Assembly (NCBI GenBank): GCA_016783905.1
Contig: JADHVQ010000004.1
Coordinates: forward strand, 1 to 57,418
Reading direction: 5' to 3'
DNA length: 57,418 nucleotides
Source: Bacteroidales bacterium
Lineage (GTDB): Bacteria > Bacteroidota > Bacteroidia > Bacteroidales > FEN-979
Shown here: piece after piece, positions 2,874 through 57,400 of the stretch
How the letters are laid out: every line of letters starts with the position of its first letter
Position numbering within the stretch: position 1 is the stretch's first letter
Position numbers and translations under genes: made by a program
The notes under the pieces: model-generated
The model's database searches: none
Seen by the model: only the letters and a program-made list of their open reading frames with translations
Told to the model about the DNA's origin: nothing

Positions 2874-4251
2874 ACTTCTTCGCCGGCGCCTGGGAGGGAA
2901 GAAAATCCTCCTGCTGGGCTTTGGCCGTGAAGGGGAGTCATCGTATCGCGTGATCAGGAAACTATGGCCAAACCAAAAGATCTGGATTGCCGACTGCAAT
3001 CCTGACGTGACCGGTAACATCCTGCTCCACGGAGATCAAAACCTTGAATTTCAGTGCGGGGAACATTACCTTGAGGGATTAAACCGGTTCGACGTGATCC
3101 TGAAATCTCCGGGGATCATTCTGAAGAAGCTGAAAGAGCCGGTCAATGAATCACGGATCACCTCCCAGACCGATCTATTCCTTGAAATTTTCGCCCCGCA
3201 GGTTACCGGCATCACTGGTACCAAAGGGAAAAGCACCACCACCAGCCTGATCGCCCACATGCTCACCACGGGCGGGAAAGAGACCATCCTGCTCGGGAAC
3301 ATCGGCACCCCGGCCTGGCACTTTTTCGACCTGATCACACCCCAAACACTCATCGTCAACGAGATCTCATCACACCAGCTCGAATACATCCGCCACGGGC
3401 CGCACATCTCCCTGCTGCTCAATATCTTCGAAGAACACCTTGATGCCTACCGCTCCTACCACGACTACCAGCTGGCCAAGATGAAGATCGCCACCACACA
3501 GGTTGCTGGCGATTACTTTCTGTATAACAGTGATGACACCCTCATCCGGGAGCACATCGGATCGCTGCCACTAAAACCGCAGCTGATACCTCTCTCCCTG
3601 CAACAGCAATTTGACGTTGGTGCCTTCAAACGAAACGGGGAACTGGTGATCCGGATCCCGGGGCGAAACGAGCTGGTCGTCCATGAACCACACAACCGGT
3701 ACCTGAAAGGGGAACACAACCTGCGCAACATCCTGGCCGCTATCACTGCCTGCTGGCTTCAGCGAGTAACCGAAGAGGCCATCCTCGACGGGCTGGCTTC
3801 ATTCAAAGGACTGGCCCACCGCATGGAGTACCTGGGGTGCCAGCATGGGATTCACTGGGTGAATGACTCCATTGCCACCATCCCCGAAGCCTGCATCGCT
3901 GCCATGCAATCCCTCCCCGATGTGGATACCCTTATCCTGGGTGGATTCGACCGGGGGATCGACTACGAAATGCTGAGCCGGTTCCTGCTTCAGGCTCCGG
4001 TACGGACATTGATCTTCAATGGGGCTGCCGGCCGGCGGATCGGCACGGAGTTGGAAAAGATAGATCAAACAATAAAAACGCGGAAAAAGCTGTTTTACAT
4101 CAACCGTTTCGATGACCTACTGCCACTGGTGCTGGAACACACCCGGCAGGGAACCACTTGCCTCCTGTCTCCGGCTGCCGCCAGCTACGACGAATTTCGC
4201 AGCTTTGAAGAACGCGGCTTACGCTTCCGGCAACTGGTAACCGAAGAATGA
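2866..4251 (+). CDS. murD: MurD family UDP-MurNAc-L-Ala--glutamate ligase (likely L-Glu-adding MurD2, given the murL link)
   Basis: GFGREG, KSPGI, GITGTKGKSTT, EISSHQL, HRME, NDSIAT, LILGG.DRG and LLSPAAASYD motifs. Confidence 0.9.
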   Translation: MVELLRRRLGGKKILLLGFGREGESSYRVIRKLWPNQKIWIADCNPDVTGNILLHGDQNLEFQCGEHYLEGLNRFDVILKSPGIILKKLKEPVNESRITSQTDLFLEIFAPQVTGITGTKGKSTTTSLIAHMLTTGGKETILLGNIGTPAWHFFDLITPQTLIVNEISSHQLEYIRHGPHISLLLNIFEEHLDAYRSYHDYQLAKMKIATTQVAGDYFLYNSDDTLIREHIGSLPLKPQLIPLSLQQQFDVGAFKRNGELVIRIPGRNELVVHEPHNRYLKGEHNLRNILAAITACWLQRVTEEAILDGLASFKGLAHRMEYLGCQHGIHWVNDSIATIPEACIAAMQSLPDVDTLILGGFDRGIDYEMLSRFLLQAPVRTLIFNGAAGRRIGTELEKIDQTIKTRKKLFYINRFDDLLPLVLEHTRQGTTCLLSPAAASYDEFRSFEERGLRFRQLVTEE

Positions 4252-4291
4252 TACGAGATACGAGATACGGGATACGGGATACGGGATACGA
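4250..4291. repeat. Heptamer tandem array (GATACGR)x6 starting in the murD stop codon
   Basis: gatacga gatacga gatacgg gatacgg gatacgg gatacga. Confidence 0.95.
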
Positions 4292-4403
4292 GATAGAGGC
4301 TGCGCCTGATAGAGCTTCACTGATGGAGCCTTCGGCTGATAAAAGGCCTGCGGTCTTGATAGAACTGACAAAAATAATAAATTTGAACCTTGAACCAAAA
4401 ACT

Positions 4404-5456
4404 ATGAACCTCCTCTTAAAAATATTCTCACCACCTCACCACCTCACTACCCACACTACCTTCACCACCCACACTACCTTCACCACCCACACTGCCCTCA
4501 CCCCCCTCACTACCCTCACCACCCTCACCATCCTCACCACAATCTTGTTCCTCTCATTTTTCTCTGCCAAAGCTCAAACCTCTTATGAGGATCAGGTCCA
4601 CGCTTACATTGATGCTTACAAAGAGATCGTGGTTCAGGACATGCGCACCTACGGCATCCCGGCCAGCATCAAGCTGGCACAGGCAATCATTGAATCAAGA
4701 GCCGGGCAGAGCATCCTGTCCAGGGAGGCTAACAACCATTTCGGAATTAAGTGCCACAAGGAATGGACCGGGAAGACTTACTGGATGGACGATGATGCTC
4801 CTAATGAGTGCTTCCGGAAATACGACCATGCCGCGAAGTCGTTCCGTGACCACTCTGAGTTCCTGACCACCCGGGACCGCTATCAGTTCCTCTTTTCACT
4901 CGATGTCCAGGACTACCGGGCCTGGGCTTACGGACTGAAGTCGGCGGGTTACGCTACCAATCCGAAATACCCCGACATGCTGATCGACATCATCGAACGT
5001 TTCTCGCTCAACCAATACGATCTTCCTGAAGAAGCGGTGGTAGCGGTGGCCACTACACAAGCTGATGAAAACCTCATGGAGGCCTACCGGCAGTTACTCG
5101 CCTACTTTGCCCCGGGCCCCAACAACCGGAAGGTCTACCTGAATAACAATGTCCAATGCACCATAGCGCTGGAGGATGATGACCTGCTAAAGATTGCCCG
5201 CGATTTTCAAGTGAAGGCAGCTGATTTGTTGCGATTCAACGACCTGAAAAGGGCCGGAGGAGTCAGGGAAGGCCAGGTAGTCTACCTCGGGAAAAAGAAA
5301 CGGAAAGCAGTGCAAAAACAACATGTGGTTGGCTACAACCAAACCATGTGGGAGATTTCCCAGGTCTTTGGCATCCGCCTGGCCAACCTCTACCGTAAAA
5401 ATCTGCTCCCCGAAGGCTATGCCCCCCCCGCCGGAAAGATACTAAAGCTAAAGTAA
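4404..5456 (+). CDS. GH73 glucosaminidase with C-terminal LysM domains (autolysin)
   Basis: GIPASIKLAQAIIES, ANNHFGIKCH, CFRKY, GYATNPKY and two LysM-like domains; likely start MNLLLK at 4404, since the longer ORF start only translates an intergenic repeat. Confidence 0.9.
   Translation: MNLLLKIFSPPHHLTTHTTFTTHTTFTTHTALTPLTTLTTLTILTTILFLSFFSAKAQTSYEDQVHAYIDAYKEIVVQDMRTYGIPASIKLAQAIIESRAGQSILSREANNHFGIKCHKEWTGKTYWMDDDAPNECFRKYDHAAKSFRDHSEFLTTRDRYQFLFSLDVQDYRAWAYGLKSAGYATNPKYPDMLIDIIERFSLNQYDLPEEAVVAVATTQADENLMEAYRQLLAYFAPGPNNRKVYLNNNVQCTIALEDDDLLKIARDFQVKAADLLRFNDLKRAGGVREGQVVYLGKKKRKAVQKQHVVGYNQTMWEISQVFGIRLANLYRKNLLPEGYAPPAGKILKLK
4427..4540 (+). repeat. In-frame 8/9-nt C-rich tandem array within the signal peptide
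   Basis: ctcaccac and accacccacactaccttc-type units encoding TTHTTFTTHTTFTTHTALTPLTTLTTLT. Confidence 0.85.
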
Positions 5457-16105: not shown

Positions 16106-17068
16106 ATGGAACCCTTTTTCAACAGCAAGAACATCGCTGATATCCTGTTCCGGTGGAAGATCCATCTGGCGGTCATCGTGGCGCTGGCCGTAGTCCTCTC
16201 GGTCATCCTTTCGAGTCCGATAGTGATCACCCCGCTGTATAAATCCTACGCCGTTGCCTACCCCTCCAACGTGGCCCCTTACTCAGATGAGAACGAGACA
16301 GAGCAGATGATTGAGATGCTCAACTCCGGGGATATCCGCGATAGCGTGATTGGGAAGTTTGACCTGGCAGTCCACTGGAAGATCGATTCCAATTACAAAT
16401 ATTTTCTCAGCACCCTTTTCTGGATCTACTCCCAGCGTGTGAAGATCACCAAAACACCTTACGAGGCGGTGAACGTTGAGGTGTGGGATCCCGATCCCCG
16501 CATGGCCTGTGATATGGTCAATGCTATCCTGGATTTCTACAATATTAAAGTGAGGAAGCTTCACAAGGATAAGTTCTACGAGGTAGTGGTCAATTATGAG
16601 ACCATAGTTAACGAAAAGATAATGAAGCTTGACTCATTACGTCAACGGGCAGAGGAGCTGGGAACCAAATATGGGCTGATGGAGTACCAGGCGCAAACCC
16701 GCGAGGTGATGCGGGCCCTGCTGGGCACCGGAAGCCAGTCGGGACGTTACAACGAAGCGCTCAAGTATAAAAAGAACATCGAAGAGAAAGGGGCGGAGAT
16801 GTTGCTGATCCAGGAGATGATGGCAGCCGAAACAGAGGAGTTTGCAATCTTCAAGCTGGACTACGACCGGGCATTGCTCGACTACAACCGTGCTTACACG
16901 CATGTGAATATCCTAACCAATCCGTATGTGTCCGACAAGAAGAGCTACCCCATTCGGTGGCTGATCGTGGTTGGCTCGGTATTGGCGATATCTTTTCTGG
17001 CCCTGATTGTGATAGGGGTGATCGAACGCACCAGGTTTGTCAAGCAGTTTCCCTCGCAACATGCATAG
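16106..17068 (+). CDS. Wzz/PCP family chain-length determinant (copy 2)
   Basis: Same architecture and KKSYPIRW motif; paralog of the upstream gene. Confidence 0.85.
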   Translation: MEPFFNSKNIADILFRWKIHLAVIVALAVVLSVILSSPIVITPLYKSYAVAYPSNVAPYSDENETEQMIEMLNSGDIRDSVIGKFDLAVHWKIDSNYKYFLSTLFWIYSQRVKITKTPYEAVNVEVWDPDPRMACDMVNAILDFYNIKVRKLHKDKFYEVVVNYETIVNEKIMKLDSLRQRAEELGTKYGLMEYQAQTREVMRALLGTGSQSGRYNEALKYKKNIEEKGAEMLLIQEMMAAETEEFAIFKLDYDRALLDYNRAYTHVNILTNPYVSDKKSYPIRWLIVVGSVLAISFLALIVIGVIERTRFVKQFPSQHA

Positions 17069-18536
17069 CCTCTTTACAGGAACGGGGATCTCCGGCTTTC
17101 TGGAGAAGTACAAAGTGGGATGGGTCTACCTTATCAGCCTGGCCTATATCCTCCTCAATGCCTATTTGATCTATAAGGATTTTTATTACTCCCTGGCTAT
17201 TCCTGTGTTGTTGGTGCTTCTCTATTTTTACTTTACACGGCTCGACTGGATCCTCCTGCTGATTGCCTTCACCACTCCCATCGCGGTGAATATGGTGCAA
17301 TACGAGCTGGGAGCCGGGATCTCGATCCCAACCGAACCGCTGCTCTTCGGTGTCTTCCTGATCTTTATCCTGAAGCTCTTTTACAAAAATGATTTCGACC
17401 GGAAGATATGGACCCATCCTGTAAGCATTTTGATCATCATTTCCCTGATCTGGATGTTCATCACCAGCCTTACCAGCCAGATCCCGCTGGTATCGTTCAA
17501 GTACCTGCTGGCCCGGTTATGGTTTGTTATTCCTTTCTATTTCCTGGGCATCCTCCTCTTCCGGAAAACGTCAAACATCCGCCTCTTCATCTGGCTATAT
17601 GCAATTCCGCTGGTTGGAGTGATCATCTACACGACCCTGGTTCACTCTACCTATGGATTTGAAGAGGAGGCAGGGCACTGGGTGATGTACCCCTTTTACA
17701 ATGACCATACGGCCTACGGCGCCATCCTGGCTCTCTTCCTCCCCATCTTTATCGGCTTCTCTTTCAGCAAGGTCTATAGCCGGACCACACGCTTTTTCTC
17801 CTTCCTCATCATGATGATCCTGGTGGTAGCCCTCTTTCTCTCTTTTTGCCGGGCTGCCTGGATCAGCATAGTTGCCACATTGATCATCTACATGATTATC
17901 CTCTTTAAGATCAAGTTCAAGTGGATTGCCGTGATCACAGGATCATTATTTATCTTCTTTTTCATGTTCCAGCAGCAGATCTGGGATGTGCTGGAACGAA
18001 ATAAGCAGGGGACATCGGGGAACTTCATGGAGCATGTCCAGTCGATCTCCAACATCACCACCGACGACTCCAACCTTGAGCGGATCAACCGCTGGCAATC
18101 GGCTTTCCGGATGTTTGATGAGCGACCCGTCTTCGGCTTTGGCCCCGGCACCTATCAGTTTGAATACGCCCCCTACCAGCTTTCTGTTGAAAAGACCCTG
18201 ATCAGCACCAACGCCGGTGACCGGGGCAATGCCCACAGCGAATTCATCGGCCCCCTGTCCGAAGAGGGATTGCCAGGAATGCTGCTGATGGTCTCCCTTG
18301 TGATCATGATCATCGCCTACGGCCTGAAAGTCCACAAACAGGCTAAAACCCCTGAAACGCGCCTGCTCAGCCTCACCTTGCTGCTTGGACTCATCACCTA
18401 CTTCCTCCACGGTACCCTCAACAACTTCCTCGACACCGACAAAGCTTCTATCCCCGTCTGGGCCTTCATCGCTGTGCTCGTCGCCCTCGACATGTACCAG
18501 AACAAGCTAGAGAGCCAGTCTTCAGTTGGCAGTTAG
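17061..18536 (+). CDS. O-antigen ligase family (WaaL/Wzy_C) protein
   Basis: Polytopic membrane protein; SFCRAAW, SNLERINRW, PVFGFGPG, NAHSEF. Confidence 0.85.
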   Translation: MHSLFTGTGISGFLEKYKVGWVYLISLAYILLNAYLIYKDFYYSLAIPVLLVLLYFYFTRLDWILLLIAFTTPIAVNMVQYELGAGISIPTEPLLFGVFLIFILKLFYKNDFDRKIWTHPVSILIIISLIWMFITSLTSQIPLVSFKYLLARLWFVIPFYFLGILLFRKTSNIRLFIWLYAIPLVGVIIYTTLVHSTYGFEEEAGHWVMYPFYNDHTAYGAILALFLPIFIGFSFSKVYSRTTRFFSFLIMMILVVALFLSFCRAAWISIVATLIIYMIILFKIKFKWIAVITGSLFIFFFMFQQQIWDVLERNKQGTSGNFMEHVQSISNITTDDSNLERINRWQSAFRMFDERPVFGFGPGTYQFEYAPYQLSVEKTLISTNAGDRGNAHSEFIGPLSEEGLPGMLLMVSLVIMIIAYGLKVHKQAKTPETRLLSLTLLLGLITYFLHGTLNNFLDTDKASIPVWAFIAVLVALDMYQNKLESQSSVGS

Positions 18537-18602
18537 CAATCATTTTTTACCTCTAAATCCCTGAAGGGGACTTACTCCCCCTTTAGGGGGTTGGGGGGCA
18601 TG
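18522..18602 (+). repeat. Left arm of ~80-bp inverted repeat (CAGTTGG heptamers plus family A palindrome)
   Basis: tcagttggcagttagcaat...ctaaatccctgaaggggacttactccccctttagggggttggggggcatg; matches the reverse complement of 20159-20235. Confidence 0.9.
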
Positions 18603-19239: not shown

Positions 19240-20157
19240 ATGAAACTCCTTACACCCATTACCGTTCAGGAACTTGCCAGCTCCCTTTGTGCACGGTTTA
19301 TCGGAGATCCGGACCATCTGGTAACCGGAATCAACGAGATTCATATGGTCGAAAAGGGGGATCTGACGTTTGTGGACCACCCCAAATATTACAGCAGGGC
19401 TCTCTCCTCCAAAGCTACCACCATCCTGATCGACAAAGAGGTGGAGTGTCCTGAAGGAAAAGCATTGATCATCTCCGAACGGCCCTTTGATGACTTTGTT
19501 TTCCTGACCATCCGGTTTCGTCCCTTTGAAGCTGCAACATCCATGGTAAGTTCCTCTGCCAACCTTGGTGAAGGCACAGTGATCCAGCCCGGGGCTTTTA
19601 TCGGGAACCACGTCACCATCGGAAAAAACTGCCTGATCCACGCCAATGCAAGCATTTACGATCACACGGTGATTGGCAATCAGGTCATCATCCACTCTGG
19701 TGCTGTGATCGGCGCTGACGCCTGCTATTTCCAGCGTCGCCCGGATGGATGGAAAAAACTGGAGTCATGCGGCAGGGCTGTGCTGGAAGACCACGTCGAA
19801 ATCGGGGCTCTCACCTCCATCGACAGAGGCGTTTCAGGCGACACCGTCATCTCTGCTGGAACAAAGATCGACAACCACGTGCAGATCGGTCACGACACCT
19901 TCGTCGGACGCAACTGCCTGATAGGCGCCCATTGCGCCATCGCCGGCGTCACCCGCATCGAGGATGATGTGGTCCTCTGGGCCCGTGTCTCGGTAAACAA
20001 AGACCTCGTGATCGGCAAAGGAGCCATTGTCTACGCCATGTCTGGCATCGACAAATCTCTCCCCGGCGGCAAGACTTACTGGGGCGTTCCCGCCGAAGAG
20101 GCCAGAAAAAAGTGGAAAGAGCTGGCGAAACTCAAGAGACTGATTAAGGAAGAATAG
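19240..20157 (+). CDS. LpxD-like hexapeptide-repeat acyltransferase (paralog)
   Basis: LpxD N-domain (GDLTFVDHPKY), hexapeptide repeats, IDR, KIDNHVQIGH. Confidence 0.85.
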   Translation: MKLLTPITVQELASSLCARFIGDPDHLVTGINEIHMVEKGDLTFVDHPKYYSRALSSKATTILIDKEVECPEGKALIISERPFDDFVFLTIRFRPFEAATSMVSSSANLGEGTVIQPGAFIGNHVTIGKNCLIHANASIYDHTVIGNQVIIHSGAVIGADACYFQRRPDGWKKLESCGRAVLEDHVEIGALTSIDRGVSGDTVISAGTKIDNHVQIGHDTFVGRNCLIGAHCAIAGVTRIEDDVVLWARVSVNKDLVIGKGAIVYAMSGIDKSLPGGKTYWGVPAEEARKKWKELAKLKRLIKEE

Positions 20158-20158
20158 G

Positions 20159-20235
20159 CATGCCCCCCAACCCCCTAAAGGGGGAGTAAATCCCCTTGAA
20201 GGGGATTTAGGGGCAAATTGCCAACTGCCAACTGA
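20159..20235 (-). repeat. Right arm of ~80-bp inverted repeat
   Basis: catgccccccaaccccctaaagggggagtaa...ggggatttaggggcaaattgccaactgccaactga; the inner 31 nt are the exact reverse complement of 18572-18602. Confidence 0.9.
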
Positions 20236-20237
20236 CT

Positions 20238-20858
20238 TTACTTATATTCCTCAATCCTGATCTCCCTCCTGCAAAATTCGCTCTCCACCTTCTGCATGTT
20301 TGAGCATACGAGGATGGTGCGGCCACAGGTATGGTCAGTGATCAGCTGCAGAAAAAAGTTGATCCCCGACTTGTCGAGGTTGGTAGTGGGTTCGTCGAGG
20401 AGAAGGAGAGGAGTGTCACTCAGAAGGGCACAAACCAGCTTCACGCGTTGCTTCATGCCGGAGGAGTATTTGAGGATCGGCTTGGTTCTTACCTGGGAGA
20501 ATGCGAGGAGGTCGATGATCTTCGGGATGGTGAAGCTGTCAACCAGCGGCTTGAATGAGAAATGAAACTCCAGCATCTCCCGAAGGGTGAACTCTTCAAT
20601 CAGCTCCTGGTAGGGGGCAACCAGTGACAGGTGGCGGAAGATCTCCGTGTCGGGGATCCTCTTCCCGTCCAGAATATATTCGATGGTACCTGCCGTAGGG
20701 TGTATATTGCCGGCGATGACCTGCAACAGGGTCGATTTTCCCGATCCGTTCCGGCCTGTAATCACCGTCCGCTCGCCCGCCTCAAACCCGGCGGTGAGGT
20801 TCCGGAAGATCCACTCGGTATTGAATTTCTTGCCAATCCCGTTGAGGGTGATCGTCAT
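20238..20858 (-). CDS. ABC transporter ATP-binding protein
   Basis: Walker A GRNGSGKST, signature YSSGMKQR, Walker B LLLLDEP. Confidence 0.92.
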   Translation of the reverse strand: MTITLNGIGKKFNTEWIFRNLTAGFEAGERTVITGRNGSGKSTLLQVIAGNIHPTAGTIEYILDGKRIPDTEIFRHLSLVAPYQELIEEFTLREMLEFHFSFKPLVDSFTIPKIIDLLAFSQVRTKPILKYSSGMKQRVKLVCALLSDTPLLLLDEPTTNLDKSGINFFLQLITDHTCGRTILVCSNMQKVESEFCRREIRIEEYK

Positions 20859-27080: not shown

Positions 27081-27125
27081 ATTGCCAATATTGCCAATAT
27101 TGCCAGTATTGCGCATCATTGCCAT
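27081..27125. repeat. Nonamer array (ATTGCCAAT-like) x5 after the porX stop
   Basis: attgccaat attgccaat attgccagt attgcgcat cattgccat. Confidence 0.85.
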
Positions 27126-27157
27126 AGATTAGAGAATTTTGTTAATTTCGAAATTTT

Positions 27158-27189
27158 CATGACTCCATGACCTCATGACTTCATGACCT
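27158..27189. repeat. Octamer array (CATGACYY)x4 containing the tsaE start codon
   Basis: catgactc catgacct catgactt catgacct. Confidence 0.9.
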
Positions 27190-28271: not shown

Positions 28272-28303
28272 AATTTTCGTATTTTCGTATAAAATTTCCT
28301 ACA

Positions 28304-30633: not shown

Positions 30634-30644
30634 TCGACATACTG

Positions 30645-32093: not shown

Positions 32094-32276
32094 ACGTTAG
32101 ACGGATGACTATATGACCGTATTTCGTATTTCCGTATGACAGTATGACCAAATGACCGTTCATATTTTTTCGTACATTTGACCCTTAATTCCTTTGCTTC
32201 GGCATCCCGCTTGGGTGGGAACCTTCGCAACGACATATATCCCTAATCGCTAATCACTGATCCCTAATCCCCACTT
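32088..32276. repeat. Intergenic mosaic of short arrays plus a degenerate palindrome
   Basis: cgttaga x2 over the aroA stop; ATGAC-containing octamers; ttgcttcg...tcgcaacgac with inner tcccgc/gtggga hairpin; atcccta atcgcta atcactg atcccta atcccca; TACATTTG at 32173-32180. Confidence 0.7.
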
Positions 32277-35169: not shown

Positions 35170-35211
35170 ACGAATTACGAATGACGAATGACGAATGACG
35201 AATGACGAATG
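35170..35211. repeat. Heptamer array (ACGAATG)x5 plus one variant, supplying the next start codon
   Basis: acgaatt then acgaatg x5; the last ATG is at 35209. Confidence 0.95.
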
Positions 35212-35922
35212 AAAAAGTTTCTCCTCTCTCTCCTGGTTCTTCTCTCTTTTCTCTTCCCCGGAACCGGAAATCTTTACTCTCAACGGATCCTGGGGGCGCT
35301 TTCGGCCGGGATCAATCTCTCCCAGGTCGATGGGGACGAGGTTTACGGATTCAAAAAAGTAGGTTTCAACGGCGGTCCCTCCATCATCATCCCCTTCGGA
35401 AAGAAGCAGCGGTGGTCGGTCACCATGGAGTTGTTATTTTCCATGAACGGATCCTATCAAAAAGGTGGTACCGATACGGTGCAACCCGATCCTAACCAAC
35501 CAGCTTCTTATAGTGGTTATAAGTTGAACCTGAACTACATTCAAATTCCGGTGATGGTCCATTTCACCGATAAAAAGATTATCGCCGGAGGTCTTGGTTT
35601 TGCCTATGGACAGCTGGTAGGTGTAAAAGAGTGGGAAAATGGCGTTAGAATCGATACTACTACCCTCCAGGGACCTTATACCCTTGCCGATTTTCAGGTG
35701 CTTGCCGATGTGAGGTTGCGGATCTGGAAAAGACTTTGGGCGAATGTTCGCTACTCTTACTCCCTGGTACCTATCCGAACGAGGTATTTTGAAAACATCA
35801 CCGGGAAGCAGGTATGGACCCGTAAGCAGCACAACAATGTGATCACCTTCCGGCTAACCTATATCTTTAACGACCCATACGTAAGACCTCAGGAAGGAAG
35901 AACGAAAAAGCAAAAACAATAA
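35209..35922 (+). CDS. Outer-membrane beta-barrel protein (OMP_b-brl_2/PorT-like)
   Basis: Signal peptide; G.N.SQVDGD...G..K.G, LNYIQIPV, NNVITFRLTY. Confidence 0.8.
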   Translation: MKKFLLSLLVLLSFLFPGTGNLYSQRILGALSAGINLSQVDGDEVYGFKKVGFNGGPSIIIPFGKKQRWSVTMELLFSMNGSYQKGGTDTVQPDPNQPASYSGYKLNLNYIQIPVMVHFTDKKIIAGGLGFAYGQLVGVKEWENGVRIDTTTLQGPYTLADFQVLADVRLRIWKRLWANVRYSYSLVPIRTRYFENITGKQVWTRKQHNNVITFRLTYIFNDPYVRPQEGRTKKQKQ

Positions 35923-36356: not shown

Positions 36357-36391
36357 AAGGTGATTTACGATTTACGAAGTACGATTTAGTG

Positions 36392-37201
36392 TTAGATTAT
36401 CCGCTTAATCAACCTCAGCTTATGCGTATACTTCTCCTGCTTTCCGTCGTAGATCCCCTGGTGGTCGATGGCATCGATGCGGACGTTGCCGGAAGCGTGG
36501 ATGATACGGAACCTGTCGGCCAGGATGCCCACATGGTTGATGTTTCCCTCTTCGTCGTCGAAGAAAGCAATATCGCCGGGCTCCGCTTCATCAAGCAGGG
36601 TAACCACCTCTCCCTGGGTTGCCTGCTGGGGGGCATCCCGGAGGAGTTTGATCTGCCTCAGCCGGTAGACCATCTGTACCAGCCCCGAGCAATCGATACC
36701 AAATGGGGAACGTCCTCCCCAGAGGTAGGGTGTATGGAGATACATCGTGGCATCTTCCACCAGGTCGTGACAAAATTCCTTTTTTTCCTGAGGGGTCTCA
36801 ATCTCCTCGACACCGGAAGTAATTGAAACCTGCCCCTCGAAGCGGAAGTTCTCCCCGGCGATTGAGAAGAACTGACCCTCCAGTCCCGGCATTGAGCTGC
36901 CTAGCGGGATGGCGAACATCGTTTTCTGTGATTCGTTCGCGATCAGCTGAACCAGGTCCATCACCGCAGGTGTGTCGGCATTCATCAACTGCAGGAACTC
37001 CTGCTCTTCAATCATTCTGGCCTGTTTTTCAGGGATCCACCCTTCGTAGTTGTCCCAGGCCAAACGTACCTGGTGCCATCCATCATATGTTTCGTAGATG
37101 CGGAAGAGTTCACCAAAAAGGAGCTGAGTAGTCATTTCCGAGAGATGAGAGGGCTCCTTTCTGACGGGAACAATGCTTTGGAGGTTGATGCCGAATTCCA
37201 T
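36392..37201 (-). CDS. SH3 + NlpC/P60 (C40) peptidase, YkfC-like
   Basis: VPVRKEPS..SEM.TQLLFGE, YEGW, PYLWGGRS..GIDCSGL, HVG, IIHAS; TAATTTTG at 37221-37228. Confidence 0.92.
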   Translation of the reverse strand: MEFGINLQSIVPVRKEPSHLSEMTTQLLFGELFRIYETYDGWHQVRLAWDNYEGWIPEKQARMIEEQEFLQLMNADTPAVMDLVQLIANESQKTMFAIPLGSSMPGLEGQFFSIAGENFRFEGQVSITSGVEEIETPQEKKEFCHDLVEDATMYLHTPYLWGGRSPFGIDCSGLVQMVYRLRQIKLLRDAPQQATQGEVVTLLDEAEPGDIAFFDDEEGNINHVGILADRFRIIHASGNVRIDAIDHQGIYDGKQEKYTHKLRLIKRII

Positions 37202-41841: not shown

Positions 41842-42450
41842 TTAGATTAAATAAGGGAATGCAAAAGTACGAAAAAAATCAGTTACCTCAGGACCGAGAT
41901 TAAACAACAAATCCACCACACTCAGATCCTGCTGAAACCCGTGCCGGTCGGCGAACACCTGGTAGTACTCCGGATGCCGGATGCCTGATGCCTGCCTCAG
42001 GTCAATGGCGCCTGGAACCTTGTTCAGGTAGCTTTCGGTTAGTGAGACTGATTTGTCCAGCCGGATTGCCTGGAATATTGTTTCCAGGAGCTGCAGGTTA
42101 AAGTCTATCAAGTAGGTGAACTCTTTTTCGTAATAGGGTATTAGATAGTCCTGGTAATAAAGGAAGTATGGCGATTTGTTGTAAGCAGCCTCAAAGGATT
42201 TCCAGTGAATCTTTTGCCAGGGCAGGTGTTTCGCTATCCGGACATCCTTTGTTTTCGTATGGTTTCCATTGGGGCGATTGACAGGAATAGTCAGTCTCAG
42301 CCTGCCGTTCTGACCACCAATCTCGCAGTGGTTGCGAAGCGTTTGCTTAGGATAAGTCTCCCACGCTTCAATCCATACTTTATCTGCTTCCACACAGGCG
42401 GCCATATATGAAATGGGTGGCAGATAAGCGGTGGGGAGTAAAACGGTCAT
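41842..42450 (-). CDS. WbqC family protein
   Basis: AYLPPISY, KQT.RN.C.I, HWKS..AAY.KSPYF, YYQVF, LSVVDLLFNLGP. Confidence 0.9.
   Translation of the reverse strand: MTVLLPTAYLPPISYMAACVEADKVWIEAWETYPKQTLRNHCEIGGQNGRLRLTIPVNRPNGNHTKTKDVRIAKHLPWQKIHWKSFEAAYNKSPYFLYYQDYLIPYYEKEFTYLIDFNLQLLETIFQAIRLDKSVSLTESYLNKVPGAIDLRQASGIRHPEYYQVFADRHGFQQDLSVVDLLFNLGPEVTDFFRTFAFPYLI
41862..41869 (-). promoter_or_regulatory. -7 element TACTTTTG for feoB, inside the wbqC 3' end
   Basis: Exact TAnnTTTG 26 nt upstream of the feoB start. Confidence 0.5.
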
Positions 42451-42511
42451 AAAGTCATTAGGAAATTACGAAATACGAAATACGAAATATAGCATCCGGC
42501 ATCGAAGGTAT

Positions 42512-43439: not shown

Positions 43440-45632
43440 TTAGTTAATTACCAGCTTTGTGGCATGACTACTTGCATCTCCGGTCATCCGAACCAGATAG
43501 ATGCCGGCCTGCAACCCAGTCAAATCAATCTCTTTTACATTCTTCCCTGGTGTTGATTCCCACACTGCTTCCCTCACTGGACGGCTGTCTGCTGTAAAGA
43601 TCACCAGGTGAATCGGTGATGCCTCGAAGGAGAAAAACTGGATGGTGACCTGGTTGGAAGCAGGATTTGGAAAGAGTTGCAGATTCCTGATCGCACTCAC
43701 ATCATCTATACCGATATTGGGCTTCTTCGGGTAATAGAGCTTCCATCCATTAGCCGTGATGGTGCTGTTGGTCATAAAAACCAGGAACATCTTACCGCTG
43801 GGTGAGGTAACCGAATCAGGAAGGCTGCCAGGAGCATACTTCCCTGATAGCCTCACCAGGGTATCTCCGGTTCCCAGGTCGTAGATGGTCAGAAAATCGT
43901 GCCCCTCCTCCGTATCAAAGTATTCAAAGTAGACAGTCAACGGATCGCCTGATTCGGTCTCCACTTTCCATTTGCACGACGAGTTGTTATAGTAGTTGAA
44001 ATCAAAGCTTCCGTCAGTGATTTCGGCAGTGTCGGATTTGATGGTAGTGATACTGCTGCACCAGACCGGCTGGTTAGCCTTGTAGTTGGCGAGGAAGCCA
44101 TTGGCCGGGGGATTGCCAGTGGCTTCAAAAGTGATCAGGAGTTGATTTCCGGAGGAGACAATTTCAGGGGGCAGCTGGTCGCCGGAATAATTTCCGATGA
44201 CCGGGTCGCTGGTGGTTCCTCCATTATGAACCGTTACGAAATCATCCGGATTGGTGTCAAACCGGTCGAAGTTCAGAGTGATGCTGGTCACGGAGTCGGC
44301 GATGGTCTGGGGAGCGATCAGCCAGCTGCAGTTGGCGGTTGGCAGGTAATCATCCACAGGTCCGCTTCCGTCTTCAAATGACCCAACCTTATGGATAAAT
44401 TCAAGGTTGCCGGAGCACTGCACAGGATAGGCATAGTTGACCGTATCCGGAAAACAATGGATCACCACCTCCTGTGCCAGGTTGAAATTGTAACCTCCTG
44501 GTGTCAGGTCGCTGGTATAGAAGTATCCGTCATTGCTGCCACCCCATCCAAAGTTGAAATGAAAAAAGCAGGAGTCCTGGTAGCCGTCGCACACAAAGGC
44601 ATGGCCACTGGTGTCAGGCACCGACCAGCCGGCATAATACATCGGGATCTTCCGGTCGAGGTGGGCAATCAGCACACTGTCCCAGTTGAGGGTAGTGCTG
44701 TCGCGGTACAGGTATTGTGTTCCGGGTGCATACTTAAAGAAGCTCCTCAATGAATAGGCTGCCTTATGGTTGTACATTCCCGATCCTGACGGGCCGTATT
44801 GCAGGTCGCAGGATACCCCCAGGTGGTATATCAGTTCGGCGATGGCCAGGTTTGAGCGGTTGATGCTGTTAGTCATCTCATTCCACTTGTATGTTGTAGC
44901 CCCGAAGTCAGCGGTGAGCACGCCGTAATTGGGTTCGGTGTAGGTATAGGATCCGGTACCTGTCTCCGGCCAGCGGAAGTAGTACATCACCTGGGCCATG
45001 CACACGGGAACGCACCCTGCCACGCAGTGGCCGCCCGGACCAGCGGGATCAGCAGGACACAGCTCATTGTACCAGGGGCTCTGGTTCCAGTGGCTCGTGA
45101 TGAGCGGCTCAACAGAACGAAGGACGAAGGATTCGGATTTTGTGTTCCGGGTTTCGGGTTGATTCCCCTCCCTTTGTGGGGAGGGGTCAGGGGAGGGGTA
45201 AAATCGCAAATCGGTCAACTTATTCCACATTTCCACGGCCCGGGGATAGGGCGCAACGTTTTCGCGGATCGCATACCGGATCTGATCCTCGTACTGCTTC
45301 ATCCAGGCGGTGAACTGGGGAGCCTGGTTGCTCTCCTCATACGATCCTTCGAAGGAATAGGCCAGGATAGGGAACACAGCATCATCGGCTGCGATGGCAA
45401 TCCATCCTTCCGGGTCCAGGTTGAAGACATAATAAAGCGGTAAACCTGGATCGGCGTTGACATAGGTTGTTTTAATAATCAATCCATCGGGTGTAAAGGC
45501 CTGAGTATTCGGACCTCGTTCAAAGAAAAAATTCCTGGCAGCCTGTGAGGCCTGCTCTTCAGACACCTGTTCAGCATATCCAAAGAAGGAGGTGCACAGG
45601 ATGAAGATCACGATGATGATGTTCCGGTTCAT
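43440..45632 (-). CDS. C10 (streptopain-like) cysteine peptidase with two CUB domains and T9SS C-terminal domain
   Basis: Signal and propeptide; WNQSPWYN, AGCV, GHAFVCDGY, NFGWGG; CUB repeats; LFPNPA...GIYLV...KLVI. Confidence 0.92.
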   Translation of the reverse strand: MNRNIIIVIFILCTSFFGYAEQVSEEQASQAARNFFFERGPNTQAFTPDGLIIKTTYVNADPGLPLYYVFNLDPEGWIAIAADDAVFPILAYSFEGSYEESNQAPQFTAWMKQYEDQIRYAIRENVAPYPRAVEMWNKLTDLRFYPSPDPSPQREGNQPETRNTKSESFVLRSVEPLITSHWNQSPWYNELCPADPAGPGGHCVAGCVPVCMAQVMYYFRWPETGTGSYTYTEPNYGVLTADFGATTYKWNEMTNSINRSNLAIAELIYHLGVSCDLQYGPSGSGMYNHKAAYSLRSFFKYAPGTQYLYRDSTTLNWDSVLIAHLDRKIPMYYAGWSVPDTSGHAFVCDGYQDSCFFHFNFGWGGSNDGYFYTSDLTPGGYNFNLAQEVVIHCFPDTVNYAYPVQCSGNLEFIHKVGSFEDGSGPVDDYLPTANCSWLIAPQTIADSVTSITLNFDRFDTNPDDFVTVHNGGTTSDPVIGNYSGDQLPPEIVSSGNQLLITFEATGNPPANGFLANYKANQPVWCSSITTIKSDTAEITDGSFDFNYYNNSSCKWKVETESGDPLTVYFEYFDTEEGHDFLTIYDLGTGDTLVRLSGKYAPGSLPDSVTSPSGKMFLVFMTNSTITANGWKLYYPKKPNIGIDDVSAIRNLQLFPNPASNQVTIQFFSFEASPIHLVIFTADSRPVREAVWESTPGKNVKEIDLTGLQAGIYLVRMTGDASSHATKLVIN
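45114..45199. repeat. Family B palindrome plus heptamer remnants inserted in frame in the C10 peptidase
   Basis: CCCCTCCC-TTTGTG-GGGAGGGG-TCAGGGGAGGGGT next to aacccga/aacccgg and tccttcg units; encodes PSPDPSPQREGNQPETRNTKSESFVLRS. Confidence 0.75.
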
Positions 45633-47940: not shown

Positions 47941-49365
47941 ATGAAACAGATCCTCATCACCAACATCAAAGAGCTCATCAACATCGAAGAGACCCCCCGT
48001 CCCTTCGTCGCCGGGAAAGAGATGTCTAACCTGAAAACCCTCAAAAACGCCTGGCTGCTGATCGAAGGCGACCGTATTAAGGATTTCGGATCAATGGAAA
48101 CGTTGCCATCTGACCTCCAATCCAGGCTCTCCGATTCTGGCATAAAACACTACGAACTCTTCGACACCACTTCACCACTGCACCATGGCACCACTGCCCC
48201 CCCCTCACCCCCCTCACCCCCCTCACCACCCTCACCACCAGTCCCCAGTCCCCAGTCCCCAGTCAAAACATTTCATCCGCTTCGTCAGTACGATGATCTG
48301 ACCGTTATCGACGCCACGAACCGCTTCGTTTTTCCCTCCTTCTGTGACTCCCATACCCATTTGGTCTATGCCGGAAGCCGGGAGATCGAGTATGTGGACA
48401 AGATCAAAGGATTCAGCTATGAAGAGATCGCCAAACGGGGTGGTGGGATCCTGAACTCGGCGAAACTGCTGCACGAAACCTCTGAGGAGGAGCTGGTGGA
48501 ACAGGCGATGGACAGGTTGAACGAAATCATCAGCCTGGGAACAGGGGCCGTGGAGATCAAGAGCGGTTATGGTCTCACCGTGGAAGATGAGCTAAAGATG
48601 CTGCGGGTGATCCGGAAGCTGAAGGAGTTATCTCCCCTTACGATTGTTTCTACCTTTCTGGGAGCACATGCTATTCCGGCCGGGTACGAGGGGAGGCAAA
48701 CCGATTATGTCGATTTGGTGATCAGCGAAATGATCCCGCAGGTAGCAACAGAAGAGCTGGCCGACTTCATTGATGTCTTCTGCGACAGGGGCTTCTTCAC
48801 CGTGGAGGATACCGACCGGATCCTCAATGCAGGGATGAAATACGGTCTGCGCCCTAAAATCCATGCCAATGAACTTGATTATTCGGGAGGCATCCAGGTA
48901 GGGGTGAAGCATAACGCGTTATCAGTCGATCACCTTGAATATACCGGCGATGCTGAGATCGCCTGCCTGCTGCAATCCGCAACCATGCCTGTCATCCTTC
49001 CCGGAGCTGCCTTTTTCCTGAATATGATTCATGCTCCGGCCCGGAAGATGATCGATGCCGGGCTACCGGTCGCATTCGCCAGTGACTTCAATCCCGGCTC
49101 CAGTCCAACCGGCAACATGCAACTGATCCTCTCCATGGCCTGCATCACCTACCGGCTGTTGCCCGAAGAAGCCATCCATGCAACCACCCTCAACGGAGCC
49201 TATGCCATGGGAGTGAGTGATGAACTGGGCAGCATTGCCCGCGGCAAGAGGGCCAACCTCTTCATCACCAAACCCATCTCCACCTATGAGTTCATGCCCT
49301 ATGCATACGGAAGTAATAAAGTCGATTCAGTTATCTTGAACGGCGAGTTTTGGATGTATAAATGA
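47941..49365 (+). CDS. hutI: Imidazolonepropionase with a low-complexity insertion
   Basis: DSHTHLV, GGGILNS, EIKSGYGL, GAHA, DVFCD.G.F, IHANEL, DHLE, SDFNPGS; start MKQIL at 47941. Confidence 0.95.
   Translation: MKQILITNIKELINIEETPRPFVAGKEMSNLKTLKNAWLLIEGDRIKDFGSMETLPSDLQSRLSDSGIKHYELFDTTSPLHHGTTAPPSPPSPPSPPSPPVPSPQSPVKTFHPLRQYDDLTVIDATNRFVFPSFCDSHTHLVYAGSREIEYVDKIKGFSYEEIAKRGGGILNSAKLLHETSEEELVEQAMDRLNEIISLGTGAVEIKSGYGLTVEDELKMLRVIRKLKELSPLTIVSTFLGAHAIPAGYEGRQTDYVDLVISEMIPQVATEELADFIDVFCDRGFFTVEDTDRILNAGMKYGLRPKIHANELDYSGGIQVGVKHNALSVDHLEYTGDAEIACLLQSATMPVILPGAAFFLNMIHAPARKMIDAGLPVAFASDFNPGSSPTGNMQLILSMACITYRLLPEEAIHATTLNGAYAMGVSDELGSIARGKRANLFITKPISTYEFMPYAYGSNKVDSVILNGEFWMYK
48165..48264 (+). 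repeat. Composite 8-, 9- and 7-mer arrays in frame inside hutI
   Basis: caccactt caccactg caccatgg caccactg; CCMCCCTCA x4; CAGTCCC x3. Confidence 0.9.
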
Positions 49366-52014: not shown

Positions 52015-52066
52015 TACTTCAGAATAAAAACTCATAACTCACCAACTCACCAACTCACCAGTTACC

Positions 52067-53869: not shown

Positions 53870-54340
53870 CTAGTTTATCCAGATCGGCGCTTCATTCACC
53901 CCGTGACAGGAGTTGCAGTTCCCGGTATAGGCCAGAATAGGCATTGTTTTAATCGCTCCCGAGGTGCCCCTCATTTGAGGATAGGCCCCAAATGCGGGTA
54001 GGATGGAGGAGGTAGTAAAAAAATTTCCTACGGCATCAATCTCCAGGGTGGCGACGAGCAATCCGGTGCCTCCGAACTCAGACCAGAAATAGAGAATCCC
54101 GTTAGGCGATGGGGTGGTCTTGTCTGATTTGAAAACAGAACCGGCTACCGCAAAGTTGTATGTGGCAGTGTCGGCCGCAATGTGGCAACTCATGCAGATC
54201 TGTCCGTTTTTATGGCTGGTAGTTCCTCCGTTAACAGAATAAACAGGGTTGGAAGGAGGTGGAGGCTCCTTTTTGGAACAACCCACCCAGAGAAGAGTTG
54301 TAATTACTATCGTTGTGAATAAATATCTGGTTGGTTTCAT
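53870..54340 (-). CDS. Lipoprotein with two CXXCH motifs (putative diheme c-type cytochrome)
   Basis: Lipobox-like WVGC; CMSCH and CNSCH. Confidence 0.75.
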   Translation of the reverse strand: MKPTRYLFTTIVITTLLWVGCSKKEPPPPSNPVYSVNGGTTSHKNGQICMSCHIAADTATYNFAVAGSVFKSDKTTPSPNGILYFWSEFGGTGLLVATLEIDAVGNFFTTSSILPAFGAYPQMRGTSGAIKTMPILAYTGNCNSCHGVNEAPIWIN

Positions 54341-54405
54341 TTTAATGGAAATACGAAATACGAAATTAGGAGATTAATTCGTAAATCGAAAATCGTCATT
54401 CGTAA

Positions 54406-57400
54406 TTAATCTTTCAGGCATCTCCCCAGAAAAGCGTTGATCTTCCCTGCAGGATAGAACGAAACACTGGGAGTATACTCGATATCCACGACCACTTCGT
54501 TCATTCCATGTGCCCAGGCTTTTTCAGGGCCATGCCGTGTAGAGGACCAGAAAATGGAGGATCTCAGGAGCGGATCAGATGCCCTGAATCTCCAGACCGA
54601 GTTGTGGAACCGGATTCCTTCCAGCAAGGCATTGAATCCCGAATATCCTGATAACTTCAAAGCGCTTCCGGCAAAACCATTGGAGATATAAAAGTTGAAA
54701 AGTGTATTCCAATCGGCTTCGGTAGGAAGATGCCATCCGGGAGGACAAAATGCCTGAGCTCCGTTATCGGTCGTGTACTGCATCATCTCATTCCACTGAT
54801 AGAGGCCTCCGTAGGCGGTGCAGTTGGCCGGATTATCGTTGATGCAGTATTTCTCAGGAATACAATTGTCGCGCTGCACCTGGGAAGAGGCGATCACGAT
54901 CCCGTAATTCAGGTTGGTCGCCATCCAGCATTGCGTTCCAATTTCAACAGTCGGATAGATCCGGTTGTCACGGATATCAATAAGCGTATCGCCACAGTTA
55001 ATTAGTACTGGCTCCAGAATGGTGATATGGATCGAATCGATCCCGTCACATCCGTATGTATTGGCGTAGTAATAAGTGATGGTATGACGTCCGGTATCTG
55101 CCAGCGCCGGGAAGAATCGGCCATTATTCACCCCGGTCCCCGTAAAGGTGCCTCCGGGAGGATTTCCTCCTTTCAGGGTAAAGGGCTGAGATTCGGTTGT
55201 CAGCAAGGTGTCGTAACAGATCGTCAGGGAGACGACAGGAAGTGGATTGACAGTCGCCACCACGCTGTTTGGTGTCCCCACACACCCATTGGCTGTTGGG
55301 GTGACCTGGTAGGTCACTGTAGGGATCATATACCCCGAATTGTATAATGTATCCTGGATCAGATCTCCCGATCCGTTGCCATATCCGGTCACAGCCGGGG
55401 AGCTGCCGGTGGCTGTCCAGGAGAATGTGGTGCCGATCACATTGGACTGTAGGGACAGGTTCGTGACCTGTCCACTGCAAATTGATTCCCCGTTCGGTGT
55501 AAAGATCACATCCGCCACAGGGAAGACCACGACAATGAAATCGGTCGAATCGCCGGTACACCCGTTGGCGGTAGCGGCTACGCGGTAGGTCACGGAGTCA
55601 ATCGTATACCCGGTATTGGTCAATGTCTGCACAATCATGGATCCGGTTCCATTGTTGAATCCGGCCAGGTTAGTTGAACTGGCAAAGGCTCTCCAGGCAA
55701 AGGTCGGGCCGGTGACATCAGCCTGGAGGGTGATGGCGGTGGTGGCGTTGTTGCACTGGCTAAAGGAGGTCACCGGATTTGTCACCGCCGGTCGCGGATT
55801 GACAGTCAATACCACCGGCATGGTGGTTCCCGGCGGACACCCGTTTGCCGTAGGGGTCGCCTGGTAGGTGACCCATTCAATCGTCGCCCCTGAATTGGAA
55901 ATGGTCTGGGCGATCAGATCCCCGGAACCGTCGGAATAACCCGTCAGGTTTGGTGACGATGGGGTGGCGGTCCAGGTGAAGGTTGTACCGGTCACATGCG
56001 ACTGCAGGGACAGGTTCGAAACCTCTCCCTCGCACAGTGTCTCCCCATTCGGAATAAAATAGACGTCCGGCACCGGGAAAACGGTGAAGGTGTAATCGGT
56101 GACCGATCCCGGACACCCGCTGTTCTCCGGAGTGATGTGGTAAGTAACCGTTTCGTTATCGAATCCTGAATTGAAAAGGACCTGGTCAATGAGCGTATCC
56201 GGAACCATGCTGTTGGAATACCCGGTAACGTTGGATGAGCTGGGCGTACAGGTCCAGGAGAACTGGGTGCCGGCCACATTGGACTGCAGGGACAACCCGG
56301 TGGGTTGTCCATTGCAGATAGAAGAGTCCAACGGATTGTTGGTCAGGTAAGGGGAAGGTACCACGGTAACCACATAGTCGGATGTGTCTCCGGCACAACC
56401 GTTGGCGTGGGGAACGATCCGGTAGGTCACGGTTTCGTTCACATCCCCCAGGTTGATCAGGTTGTCATCAATCAGGGTGGCCGGGTTTGTATTATCGTTG
56501 TATCCGGTGATATTGGCCGAAGAACCATAGGCGGTCCAGGTAAACAGCGTCCCGGTCACGTTGGAGGTCAAGGTGATATCGGTGTTGTTATTATTGCAGA
56601 TCTCTTTGGCCAGCGGGGTGGTCGACAGGTCGGGAACAGGATAGACGGTGACCACAAAACTGGTATCTGCCCCATCGCACCCGTTGGCTGATGGAGTGAT
56701 GGTGTAGGTTACCGTTTCGATGTCGTCTCCGGTATTCATAAGCGTCTGATCCAGGATATCGGTTGGTATGGCATTATCCGAAAAGCCGGTGACATTGGCT
56801 GATGATCCGGTGGCGCTCCAGGTAAAAAGGGTTCCACTGACATTTGAGGTAAGGGTCACACCGGTTGGCTCTCCGTTGCAGATAGCGGTGTCGGGCGGAT
56901 CATTAGACATATCCGGAACAGGAAAGACGGTAACCACATATCCGGAATCCGGTCCCTGGCATCCGGCTGCTGTGGGCGTGACCTGGTAGGTCGCCCATTC
57001 GATGTCAAACCCCAGATTCGTCAGGGTCTGATTCAACAGGGTGGTTGGTGTTGTCTGATCGGAAAAACCGGTAACCAGCAACGAGGAACCGGTCACAGTC
57101 CAGGTGAACCAGGTATTGGTAACATCCGAGGTCAATGTTACATTCGGACCGGTATTGCTGCAGATCGAATCCCCTTTGGGCAGGTTGGTCAGGTGAGGCA
57201 GGGGTTTGACCCATTGGGTGAAGGTGGTGTCAAGACCGGTACAGTTGCCGGTGGCCGGGGTGATGGTATACAGCACACTGCCGGCCAGTGGATCGGGATT
57301 AAAGAGCTGCTGGGCAATCAGCGATCCGGAGCCATCGCTGAATCCATTGATGTTCCCGGCTCCCTGTGCAGCGATCCAGGTATAGGCTGTGCCCAGGACA

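Follow-up and report, generated by a model that had tools for sequence, protein, structure and literature searches.

We analysed contig JADHVQ010000004.1 of the uncultured Bacteroidales assembly GCA_016783905.1, focusing on the short tandem arrays of 7- to 9-nt units that lie at its gene boundaries and inside its open reading frames (ORFs). The window, by which we mean this whole contig of 57,418 nt, belongs to a 128-contig, 2.47-Mb assembly that is 89% complete; the genome under study is designated G000, comparison genomes are numbered from G001 upward, and G003 is the closest relative. The window encodes Bacteroidota hallmarks, namely type IX secretion system (T9SS) sorting domains, a C10 peptidase and PKD_5 repeats, and the best matches of its Tex protein (67-68% identity) came from metagenome-assembled genomes (MAGs) labelled Bacteroidales. 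DNA near-identical to the window was found in aquatic, marine and estuary metagenomes of four studies, and known RNA families and tRNAs were not found in the window. The arrays of the window are listed in Table 1.

Arrays were detected with Tandem Repeats Finder (TRF), and overlapping rows were collapsed to give non-redundant arrays. On the window TRF returned 51 rows, mostly of periods 7, 8 and 9; arrays with these periods numbered 20, 5 and 9, as compared with means of 0.8, 0.95 and 0.85 in 20 mononucleotide shuffles. Genome-wide, the non-redundant counts were 570, 289 and 249, as compared with 39.4, 47 and 48.8 in five dinucleotide-preserving shuffles, and the flanking periods 6 and 10 gave 67 (10 in shuffles) and 145 (74 in shuffles). 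The period spectrum therefore has its maximum at 7 with shoulders at 8-9 and an excess of 5- to 15-fold over shuffles, and arrays of period 7-9 make up 1.3% of the genome. An initial annotation of the window had proposed arrays of many different units with periods limited to 7-9; the excess of such arrays is far beyond chance, and TRF found the arrays at all but one of its sites (4250, 20219, 27081, 27156, 28150/28243, 32239, 35170, 36362, 42462, 54348 and 52036). The one left over, CAGTTGG at 18523, is visible in the sequence and has only two copies, which is below the TRF threshold. Head-to-tail units of 5-11 nt with heptamers commonest, in more arrays than composition predicts, characterise the class of long simple-sequence repeats (LSSRs) and short tandemly repeated repetitive (STRR) sequences. 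The genome is an unusually dense new example of this known, still unexplained class of bacterial repeats.

Table 1. Tandem arrays and associated elements in the window
Unit and copies	Position	Strand	Context
GATACGA x6.6	4250..4295	+	begins inside TGA stop (4249-4251) of ORF 2866..4251; purine-rich on sense strand
CTCACCACC x12.9 (period 9/18)	4427..4540	+	in-frame, N-terminal signal-peptide region of glucosaminidase/LysM protein
CAGTTGG, 2 copies	18523..18539	+	overlaps TAG stop of Wzy_C ORF 17037..18536; also in G003
GC-rich palindromic element, then TGCCAAC x2.3 (complement of CAGTTGG)	20156..20234 (TGCCAAC at 20219)	.	TGCCAAC array ends 3 nt from stop of minus-strand ORF 20238..20858
ATTGCCAAT x4.8	27081..27124	+	starts 2 nt past stop of PglZ response-regulator ORF 25526..27079
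TTCATGAC x4.5	27156..27192	+	final unit provides ATG start of TsaE (27183)
CAGTCnn x4-5	28150..28185	+	starts in TAG stop (28149-28151) of DUF4440 ORF; hairpin left arm
GACTGAR x4.1 (hairpin right arm), then ATTTTCGT x2.2	28243..28290	+	upstream of alanine dehydrogenase start 28304
AAGGCAA x4.4, TTCCTCA x4.6, TCGTCCC x16.4 composite	31491..31707	+	in-frame insert of ~62-70 aa, EPSP synthase ORF 30582..32093
CGTTAGA x2.3, then CCGTATTT x2.8	32088..32137	+	CGTTAGA contains EPSP synthase TAG stop (32091-32093)
ATCCCTA x4.7	32239..32271	+	ends 5 nt short of ORF 32277..32996 start
ACGAATG x6.1, then TCTTCTC x2.7	35170..35256	+	starts 6 nt past Tex stop (35163)
GATTTAC x3.9	36362..36388	-	fills spacer of two minus-strand genes; ends 3 nt after stop of 36392..37201
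CCGGATG x3.3	41970..41992	-	within WbqC-like ORF 41842..42450; G003 version 15 nt longer
GAAATAC/ATTACGAA x4	42457..42489	-	6 nt upstream of WbqC-like start (42450); kept with base changes in G003
ACGAAGG x2.1 + TTCGGGT x4.1	45117..45160	-	Peptidase_C10 ORF 43440..45632, between inhibitor and protease domains
abutting CACCACTG, CCCCCCTCA, CCAGTCC (periods 8, 9, 7)	48165..48264	+	in-frame, HutI-like amidohydrolase 47941..49365
AACTCACC x3.1	52036..52060	+	ends 6 nt before formiminotransferase-cyclodeaminase start (52067)
GAAATAC x2.7 + TAATTCG x4.7	54348..54407	-	fills spacer of two minus-strand genes; overlaps stop of 54406..57276

The placement of the arrays was assessed against our own rough gene model, which calls genes by ORF and codon usage (1824 genes, 13.4% of the genome intergenic). 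As had been proposed for the window, the arrays are biased towards gene boundaries: the intergenic share of array bases was 55% for period 7 and 60% for period 8, as compared with 13% of the genome, and it was 30% for period 9 and 12% for period 12. In 362 of the 1824 genes an array of period 7-8 begins between -10 and +300 nt from the stop codon, and in 150 of these 362 it does so within 3 nt. Furthermore, 23.8% of stop-adjacent intergenic arrays lay within 3 nt of the stop, while random placement in the same spacers gave 7.2%. When array starts were extended by periodicity, they peaked at the second base of the stop (31 at -2, 7 at -3 and 4 at -4), so that only the T of such a stop is unique and its two purines form the beginning of the array. 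TAG accounted for 38% of these anchored stops and 21% of stops genome-wide, suggesting that many stops were created at the array junction. The sense strand of the anchored arrays contains 32% A, 34% G, 20% T and 13% C. The arrays thus lie close to, or overlap, the stop with the purine-rich strand as the coding strand, which is the stop placement of the repeats of Rehm et al. (2015; PMC4692102).

Arrays also occur deep inside genes, and these had been missed by the initial annotation. Outside the window contig, we found 210 arrays of period 7-8 at least 150 nt from both ends of ORFs of at least 750 nt, in 128 such ORFs. Among the top 20 of these arrays, 19 had hosts with Pfam domains and 11 were flanked on both sides by domain matches, the hosts being aconitase, KsgA, a tricorn-like protease, Lnt, ValRS, a MOSC/MoCF protein, DNA polymerase I, IspG, a TPR/PD40/OmpA protein, saccharopine dehydrogenase and a MiaB-like enzyme. 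The EPSP synthase ORF of the window illustrates such an insertion. It is open across the arrays at 31491-31707 and encodes 503 residues, in which the Pfam domain is split in two; alignment with solved EPSP synthases covers residues 32-303 and 374-495 and leaves ~70 residues where those enzymes have ~8. An AlphaFold2 model built with 12 orthologues was confident as a whole (pLDDT 80, pTM 0.79), and it predicted residues 309-370 as coil with pLDDT below 50. The insert is absent from 4 of the 12 orthologues, and its length and sequence differ in the other 8. In protein loops and linkers only stop-free, frame-preserving versions of the arrays persist, and these are translated as disordered inserts. 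Since in-frame hosts include the essential ValRS, DNA polymerase I, IspG and EPSP synthase, a phase-variable switch there would be lethal. A similar architecture may exist in the exonuclease VII large-subunit gene xseA of the array-rich relatives G003 (G003:C113:11058-12347) and G007 (G007:C160:30726-32030), where two profile halves (1-184 and 188-388) lie in one frame of 448-477 aa; judged from sequence, the split match suggests another in-frame insert. Note that xseA was not found in G000, which is 89% complete.

G003 is syntenic with the window at ~85% nucleotide identity, and comparison of orthologous sites gave three classes, namely arrays shared with a different copy number, arrays replaced by another vocabulary unit, and arrays present in one genome only. 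The TCGTCCC array of EPSP synthase has ~16 copies in G000 and 4 in G003, a difference of 84 nt that equals 12 units and also 4 x 21 nt, so that the reading frame is kept; close relatives thus differ by whole units, as is typical of LSSRs. At the ATTGCCAAT site G003 carries a related array of higher copy number. The CGTTAGA x2.3 array at the EPSP synthase stop of G000, which corresponds to GTGAGAC x~20 in G003, also falls in the class of differing copy number. In the replaced class, G000 has ACGAATG after Tex, and G003 has GTGAGAC x9 and GAGAACT x7 instead. Examples of the one-genome-only class are 54348-54407, the HutI insert and 20156-20234. The arrays at 54348..54407 are absent from G003, which has a single ATTCGAA at that site; the HutI-like arrays are part of a ~170-nt insert absent from G003; and the ~90-nt block at 20156..20234 is wholly absent from it (orthologous site 20157-20238). 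Across 12 species, a purine-rich array lies at or in the EPSP synthase stop in 9, and the units differ, some being related. Position and polarity thus persist between species while array sequence changes quickly.

Other observations were made at individual sites. At 27156-27192, the 8-nt unit TCATGACY repeats the tsaE start-codon context four times, which places several in-phase ATG triplets upstream of the annotated tsaE start, and G003 has fewer copies. Between G000 and G003, the spacer at 28152-28303, which contains the hairpin of inverted arrays, and the adjoining 50 nt at the end of the upstream gene share 97-99% identity, as compared with ~85% over the remainder of the 47-kb synteny, where every 200-nt bin stays below 96%. 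Among genomes of the genus, the whole spacer was found only in these two. Such conservation points either to strong constraint or to a short tract that was exchanged recently. Summed contig depth over the TCGTCCC (31438-31754) and ACGAATG (34925-35241) arrays was 12-60x single-copy in three metagenomes and about 4-fold single-copy in the sparsely covered metagenome X7.

Relatives were sampled at ~40 kb per genome (six genomes less, down to 6.7 kb), with a shuffle background of ~0.016 arrays/kb. The density of period-7 arrays was 0.29-0.49 arrays/kb in G000 and G003-G008, 0.11-0.20 in G001, G002 and G009, and 0.05 in G010, which belongs to the same genus. G011 and G013, which represent two other genera of the family, had 0.25 arrays/kb, and G012, G014, G016 and G028 had 0-0.03.

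The units themselves form a restricted vocabulary. The 560 period-7 arrays with a 7-nt consensus comprise 168 distinct canonical units, as compared with ~420 expected (range 397-441), and the most frequent families are GGACGAR (66 arrays), AATTACG (25), AACTGCC (25) and AAATCGT (23). The proposal that many units share a core was borne out: ACGA/TCGT occurs in 27% of period-7 arrays and 4% of random genome heptamers, and CAGT/ACTG in 14.6% and 4.8%, respectively. The same units recur at dozens of unrelated loci in the genome, and arrays of one unit differ in their flanks, which show neither conserved sequence nor terminal repeats or target duplications. Together with the excess over shuffles, the many units and unrelated flanks agree with the earlier view that neither one mobile repeat nor random microsatellites account for the arrays. 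Arrays of different units often adjoin, as 153 inter-array gaps are 10 nt or shorter. Features of REP/BIME-RAYT systems (repetitive extragenic palindromes and their mosaic elements) or of miniature inverted-repeat transposable elements (MITEs) were lacking, in that the units are non-palindromic, their flanks are unrelated and G000 gave no match to PF01797. A G-tract in every unit, as in the repeats of Rehm et al., was not found either: GGACGAR carries GG/GGG tracts, and AATTACG, AAATCGT, AACTGCC and AAATACG have none. For published units, TAACTGA gave 0 TRF arrays and 0 runs of at least 3 copies in the genome, GGGAATC was absent, and GGGGACT (complement of CCCCAGT) formed one array.

Among 401 Bacteroidota genomes sampled, 17, from 12 of 180 genera, carry AATKACG x3; its occurrence in distant lineages fits intrinsic expandability better than one mobile element. 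GGACGAR arrays were found in 5 of the 401 genomes with just 1-2 matches outside G000, indicating that this unit is essentially lineage-specific. In the distant Bacteroidota genome G161 (L150-L153), AATTACG arrays are embedded in a longer repeat of ~75 nt that is reiterated several times with recurring flanks like CTGACAACCGGA... and ...GATTTACGA, and no ORF of at least 80 aa lies nearby. A GC-rich palindromic dispersed element of ~50 nt (C runs then G runs, two nested hairpins) was also observed at ~13 loci of the genome, in the window at 20156-20218 and 18564-18602; it often adjoins heptamer arrays and looks like a small REP/MITE-like element, and no RAYT was found in the assembly.

Several arrays of the window had been described as inverted pairs. 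The one at 28150/28243 was confirmed and forms a stable fold (-54.5 kcal/mol, z = -5.8), but such pairs are not general: among 1067 arrays of period 7-9 genome-wide, same-unit pairs within 300 nt were inverted in 5 cases and direct in 4. Folding of array-bearing spacers gave median z-scores of -0.49 and -0.13 (n = 60 each), as compared with -1.13 for array-free spacers. A terminator or hairpin role was therefore rejected as a general explanation, as array spacers fold no better than array-free ones and inverted pairs are rare.

We think it fairly probable that the arrays are slippage-driven long simple-sequence repeats of the heptamer class, STRR-like in kind, filtered by selection and with a Rehm-type placement. 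Slipped-strand misalignment or unequal exchange would create an array and alter its length by one unit of 7-9 nt at a time, and a limited set of units would expand readily in this lineage, giving the shared vocabulary with no need for a dedicated enzyme. In at least one case, the array at 54375 and the single ATTCGAA of G003, local seeding may be read from the sequences. The surviving arrays fill sequence that is free to vary, being flush to the last constrained base of a gene, in spacers, or in tolerant protein loops and linkers, which fits such a selection filter.

Several observations weigh against this account. Slippage alone leaves the polarity at stops unexplained. The ratio of purine-rich to pyrimidine-rich stop arrays on the sense strand was 103:11, with 63:3 in co-directional and 32:3 in convergent gene pairs, and arrays falling within the final 30 nt of an ORF gave 24:1. 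The relatives (~600 kb sampled) gave 30:3, including 6:1 in another genus, and in five distant Bacteroidota lineages AATKACG was on the sense strand in 11 of 11 arrays within 21 nt past a stop. In addition, simple local slippage would not swap one unit for another at a fixed site; either convergence or units brought in from arrays elsewhere are required. For the 16-unit array of EPSP synthase, both the copy number and the frame that follows from it are taken from the MAG assembly alone, and Logan contigs list no indels but break at 31619-31678 and 35184-35202, so that they are silent on within-population copy number. A 21-nt super-period was not significantly commoner in genes (8 of 20 deep-genic, 4 of 15 intergenic and 2 of 15 edge arrays). 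Finally, start codons are over-extended in our gene model, which makes counts near 5' ends soft.

The stop polarity must stem from selection on 3' untranslated RNA or from a transcription-linked mutational bias, either of which may act in addition to slippage. It was sharpest within a few nt of the stop and faded by 16-40 nt (9:8), and deep in-gene arrays occurred in both orientations (88:57). With start codons approximate, the purine:pyrimidine ratios upstream of ORFs were 12:20 in the 5'-end class, 15:23 in divergent spacers and 2:6 in distant lineages, a weak lean in the direction reported for the Rehm repeats. A gene-calling artefact was ruled out as the source of the polarity by the 24:1 ratio in ORF 3' ends, and anti-Rho protection limited to operons by the equal polarity in convergent and co-directional pairs. 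Provision of stops in all three frames was likewise rejected as the driver, as 68 of 150 anchored units contain a sense stop triplet, near the ~37% that we estimated by hand from composition; the commonest family, GGACGAR, has no stop triplet in its unit. Directional growth or treadmilling towards genes was not evident, as arrays showed no decay polarity along the purine strand (45 vs 55 of 103, p = 0.12).

If the arrays after stops were functional 3' untranslated region (3'-UTR) elements, the purine-rich, C-poor units would be selected as mRNA cis-elements; they might keep the first untranslated nucleotides unstructured or unattractive to Rho, provide a termination context, or bind an RNA-binding protein. 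Because any purine-rich unit would serve, sequence would turn over while position and polarity are kept, as in the 9 of 12 species with a purine-rich array at the stop of EPSP synthase. The strong, context-independent polarity, its recurrence in relatives and distant lineages, the 13% C and 34% G of anchored sense strands, and one whole spacer conserved at 97-99% between species with genes ~85% identical are all in line with this explanation, as is the report that most Rehm repeats are transcribed (PMC4692102). However, an array within 300 nt past the stop occurs in just 362 of the 1824 genes, the close relatives G010, G014 and G016 are nearly array-free, so that none can be essential, and spacers with arrays show no more structure than those that lack them (median z -0.1 to -0.5 vs -1.1). 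Such a role also cannot apply to arrays inside genes or upstream of starts, and it does not explain at the RNA level the upstream antisense half of the rule published for Rehm repeats. We consider a 3'-UTR function of the arrays unlikely.

As an explanation of the arrays as a whole, expansion coupled to transcription appears very unlikely to us. Here the ribosome would leave at the stop, the purine-rich nascent RNA would form an R-loop, and the exposed non-template strand and stalled forks would favour slippage; growth of purine-sense arrays would then be favoured immediately downstream of stops, and the period of 7-9 nt would reflect how long the RNA:DNA hybrid is. Hybrids of purine RNA with pyrimidine DNA are stable, and R-loops contribute to repeat instability. 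The polarity follows transcription and is sharpest near the stop, and the period range of 7-9 matches. Yet the arrays lack decay polarity, deep in-gene arrays, which are covered by ribosomes, are abundant in both orientations, and the upstream antisense preference of Rehm et al. (2015; PMC4692102) is not predicted.

The initial annotation had instead inferred a dedicated repeat-generating or repeat-spreading process encoded elsewhere in the genome, which could be a short-template reverse transcriptase, an HUH/RAYT nuclease, or a nickase-polymerase pair acting on ACGA/CAGT cores. The recurrence of the same units at dozens of unrelated loci, core motifs enriched 3- to 7-fold, units swapped at fixed sites, and the patchy distribution (0.29-0.49 arrays/kb in G000 and G003-G008 vs 0-0.05 in G010, G012, G014, G016 and G028) would suit such machinery. 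However, no family of small or mobile genes is multicopy in the assembly, where ABC ATPases (7 and 5) and ketoacyl synthases (5) form the largest groups of paralogues, and the enrichment of arrays near small multicopy genes that had been anticipated thus has no such genes to refer to. Searches for the Y1 transposase/RAYT family (PF01797) found it in array-poor relatives but not in the array-rich G000, G003, G005, G008 and G013, those for reverse transcriptase (PF00078) gave no match in the array-rich G000, G003, G006 and G007, and exonuclease VII (ExoVII) xseA is present in array-rich and array-poor genomes alike. Among 31 relatives, RAYT, reverse transcriptase and ExoVII, the three families tested in these incomplete MAGs, showed no association with array richness. 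Neither do arrays have the conserved flanks, terminal repeats or target duplications of a mobile element, and the occurrence of the class in other phyla (Xanthomonas, Nostoc; PMC4692102) argues for a general property. The dedicated process thus did not find support, and we hold it to be highly improbable.

Slippage filtered by selection is the reading that we prefer as the simplest. Repeat DNA becomes protein sequence on a large scale (at least 128 ORFs), which bears on the origin of disordered inserts. The stop-anchored, purine-first placement is independent of G-quadruplex-forming units, which weakens the main functional idea of the literature. The genus is a natural contrast set, with rich species (0.3-0.5 arrays/kb) beside poor sister species and genera (0-0.05), and suits a gene-content association test. 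Public short-read contigs stop within the arrays, so that assemblies of organisms of this kind are systematically fragmented there, and caution is required in MAG annotation and assembly. It is also conceivable, if improbable, that the arrays mark a general mutational process coupled to transcription and translation, in which an R-loop at the stop adds 7-9-nt units; gene ends would then serve as inherent sources of new sequence, and this sequence would at times enter proteins in frame.

Among known systems, the Rickettsia palindromic elements are dispersed palindromes of 100-150 bp inserted in frame in protein genes. Like the present arrays, they are repeats, selfish or neutral, that housekeeping proteins tolerate in frame within surface loops, and they differ in being dispersed palindromes instead of tandem 7-9-nt arrays. 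Tandem heptamers have been noted in cyanobacteria since about 1990. The STRR units of Calothrix are reportedly CCCCAGT, TTGGTCA and CAACAGT, which form 1, 1 and 0 arrays here. As in Calothrix PCC 7601, whose STRR heptamers are mentioned in PMC4692102, at least three different tandem heptamers are dispersed in intergenic DNA, and the CAGT core is common with part of our vocabulary. The cyanobacterial likeness drawn by the initial annotation thus holds as to the type of repeat, whereas the host is an uncultured Bacteroidales of another phylum. Long simple-sequence repeats with 5-11-nt units, heptanucleotides commonest, were described by Mrazek et al. (2007; as summarised in PMC4679880 and PMC4692102), who proposed polymerase slippage. 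Their genome-specific period-7 excess, and units in multiples of three commoner inside genes (here periods 9 and 12), are shared with G000; the survey as summarised there was made without this lineage.

MacGregor (2015; PMC4679880) described TAACTGA direct repeats in marine Beggiatoaceae, 15 Cyanobacteria and 5 Bacteroidetes. According to that account, these are gene-boundary heptamers of patchy phylogenetic distribution, some overlapping the upstream stop, which are mixed with other heptamers in Microcystis and some Bacteroidetes, differ by 7-nt indel steps between close strains, and have few copies inside ORFs, at protein peripheries; in all these respects they are like the present arrays. 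Unlike them, BOGUAY arrays lie mostly just upstream of starts, whereas the clearest anchor here is the upstream stop; TAACTGA is absent here, and copies inside ORFs are much more frequent and are found in core enzymes. The G-rich heptamers GGGAATC of Xanthomonas and GGGGA(C/T)T of Nostoc PCC 7120 are described by Rehm et al. (2015; PMC4692102) as being of unknown function, mostly transcribed, and located at hundreds of loci, mostly between co-directional genes with occasional inverted pairs; the paper refers to almost no detailed earlier work on heptamers. Within 50 bp of a stop, or overlapping it, their G-rich strand is the coding strand, and upstream of ORFs it is preferentially the non-coding strand. 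The tandem 7-nt units, the hundreds of loci, the stop placement with its polarity and the occasional inverted pairs are thus common to both systems. In contrast, the present genome uses 168 canonical heptamers together with 8- and 9-mers, most of them unable to form G-quadruplexes (AATTACG, AAATCGT), its host phylum is different, and its arrays invade 128 ORFs in frame.

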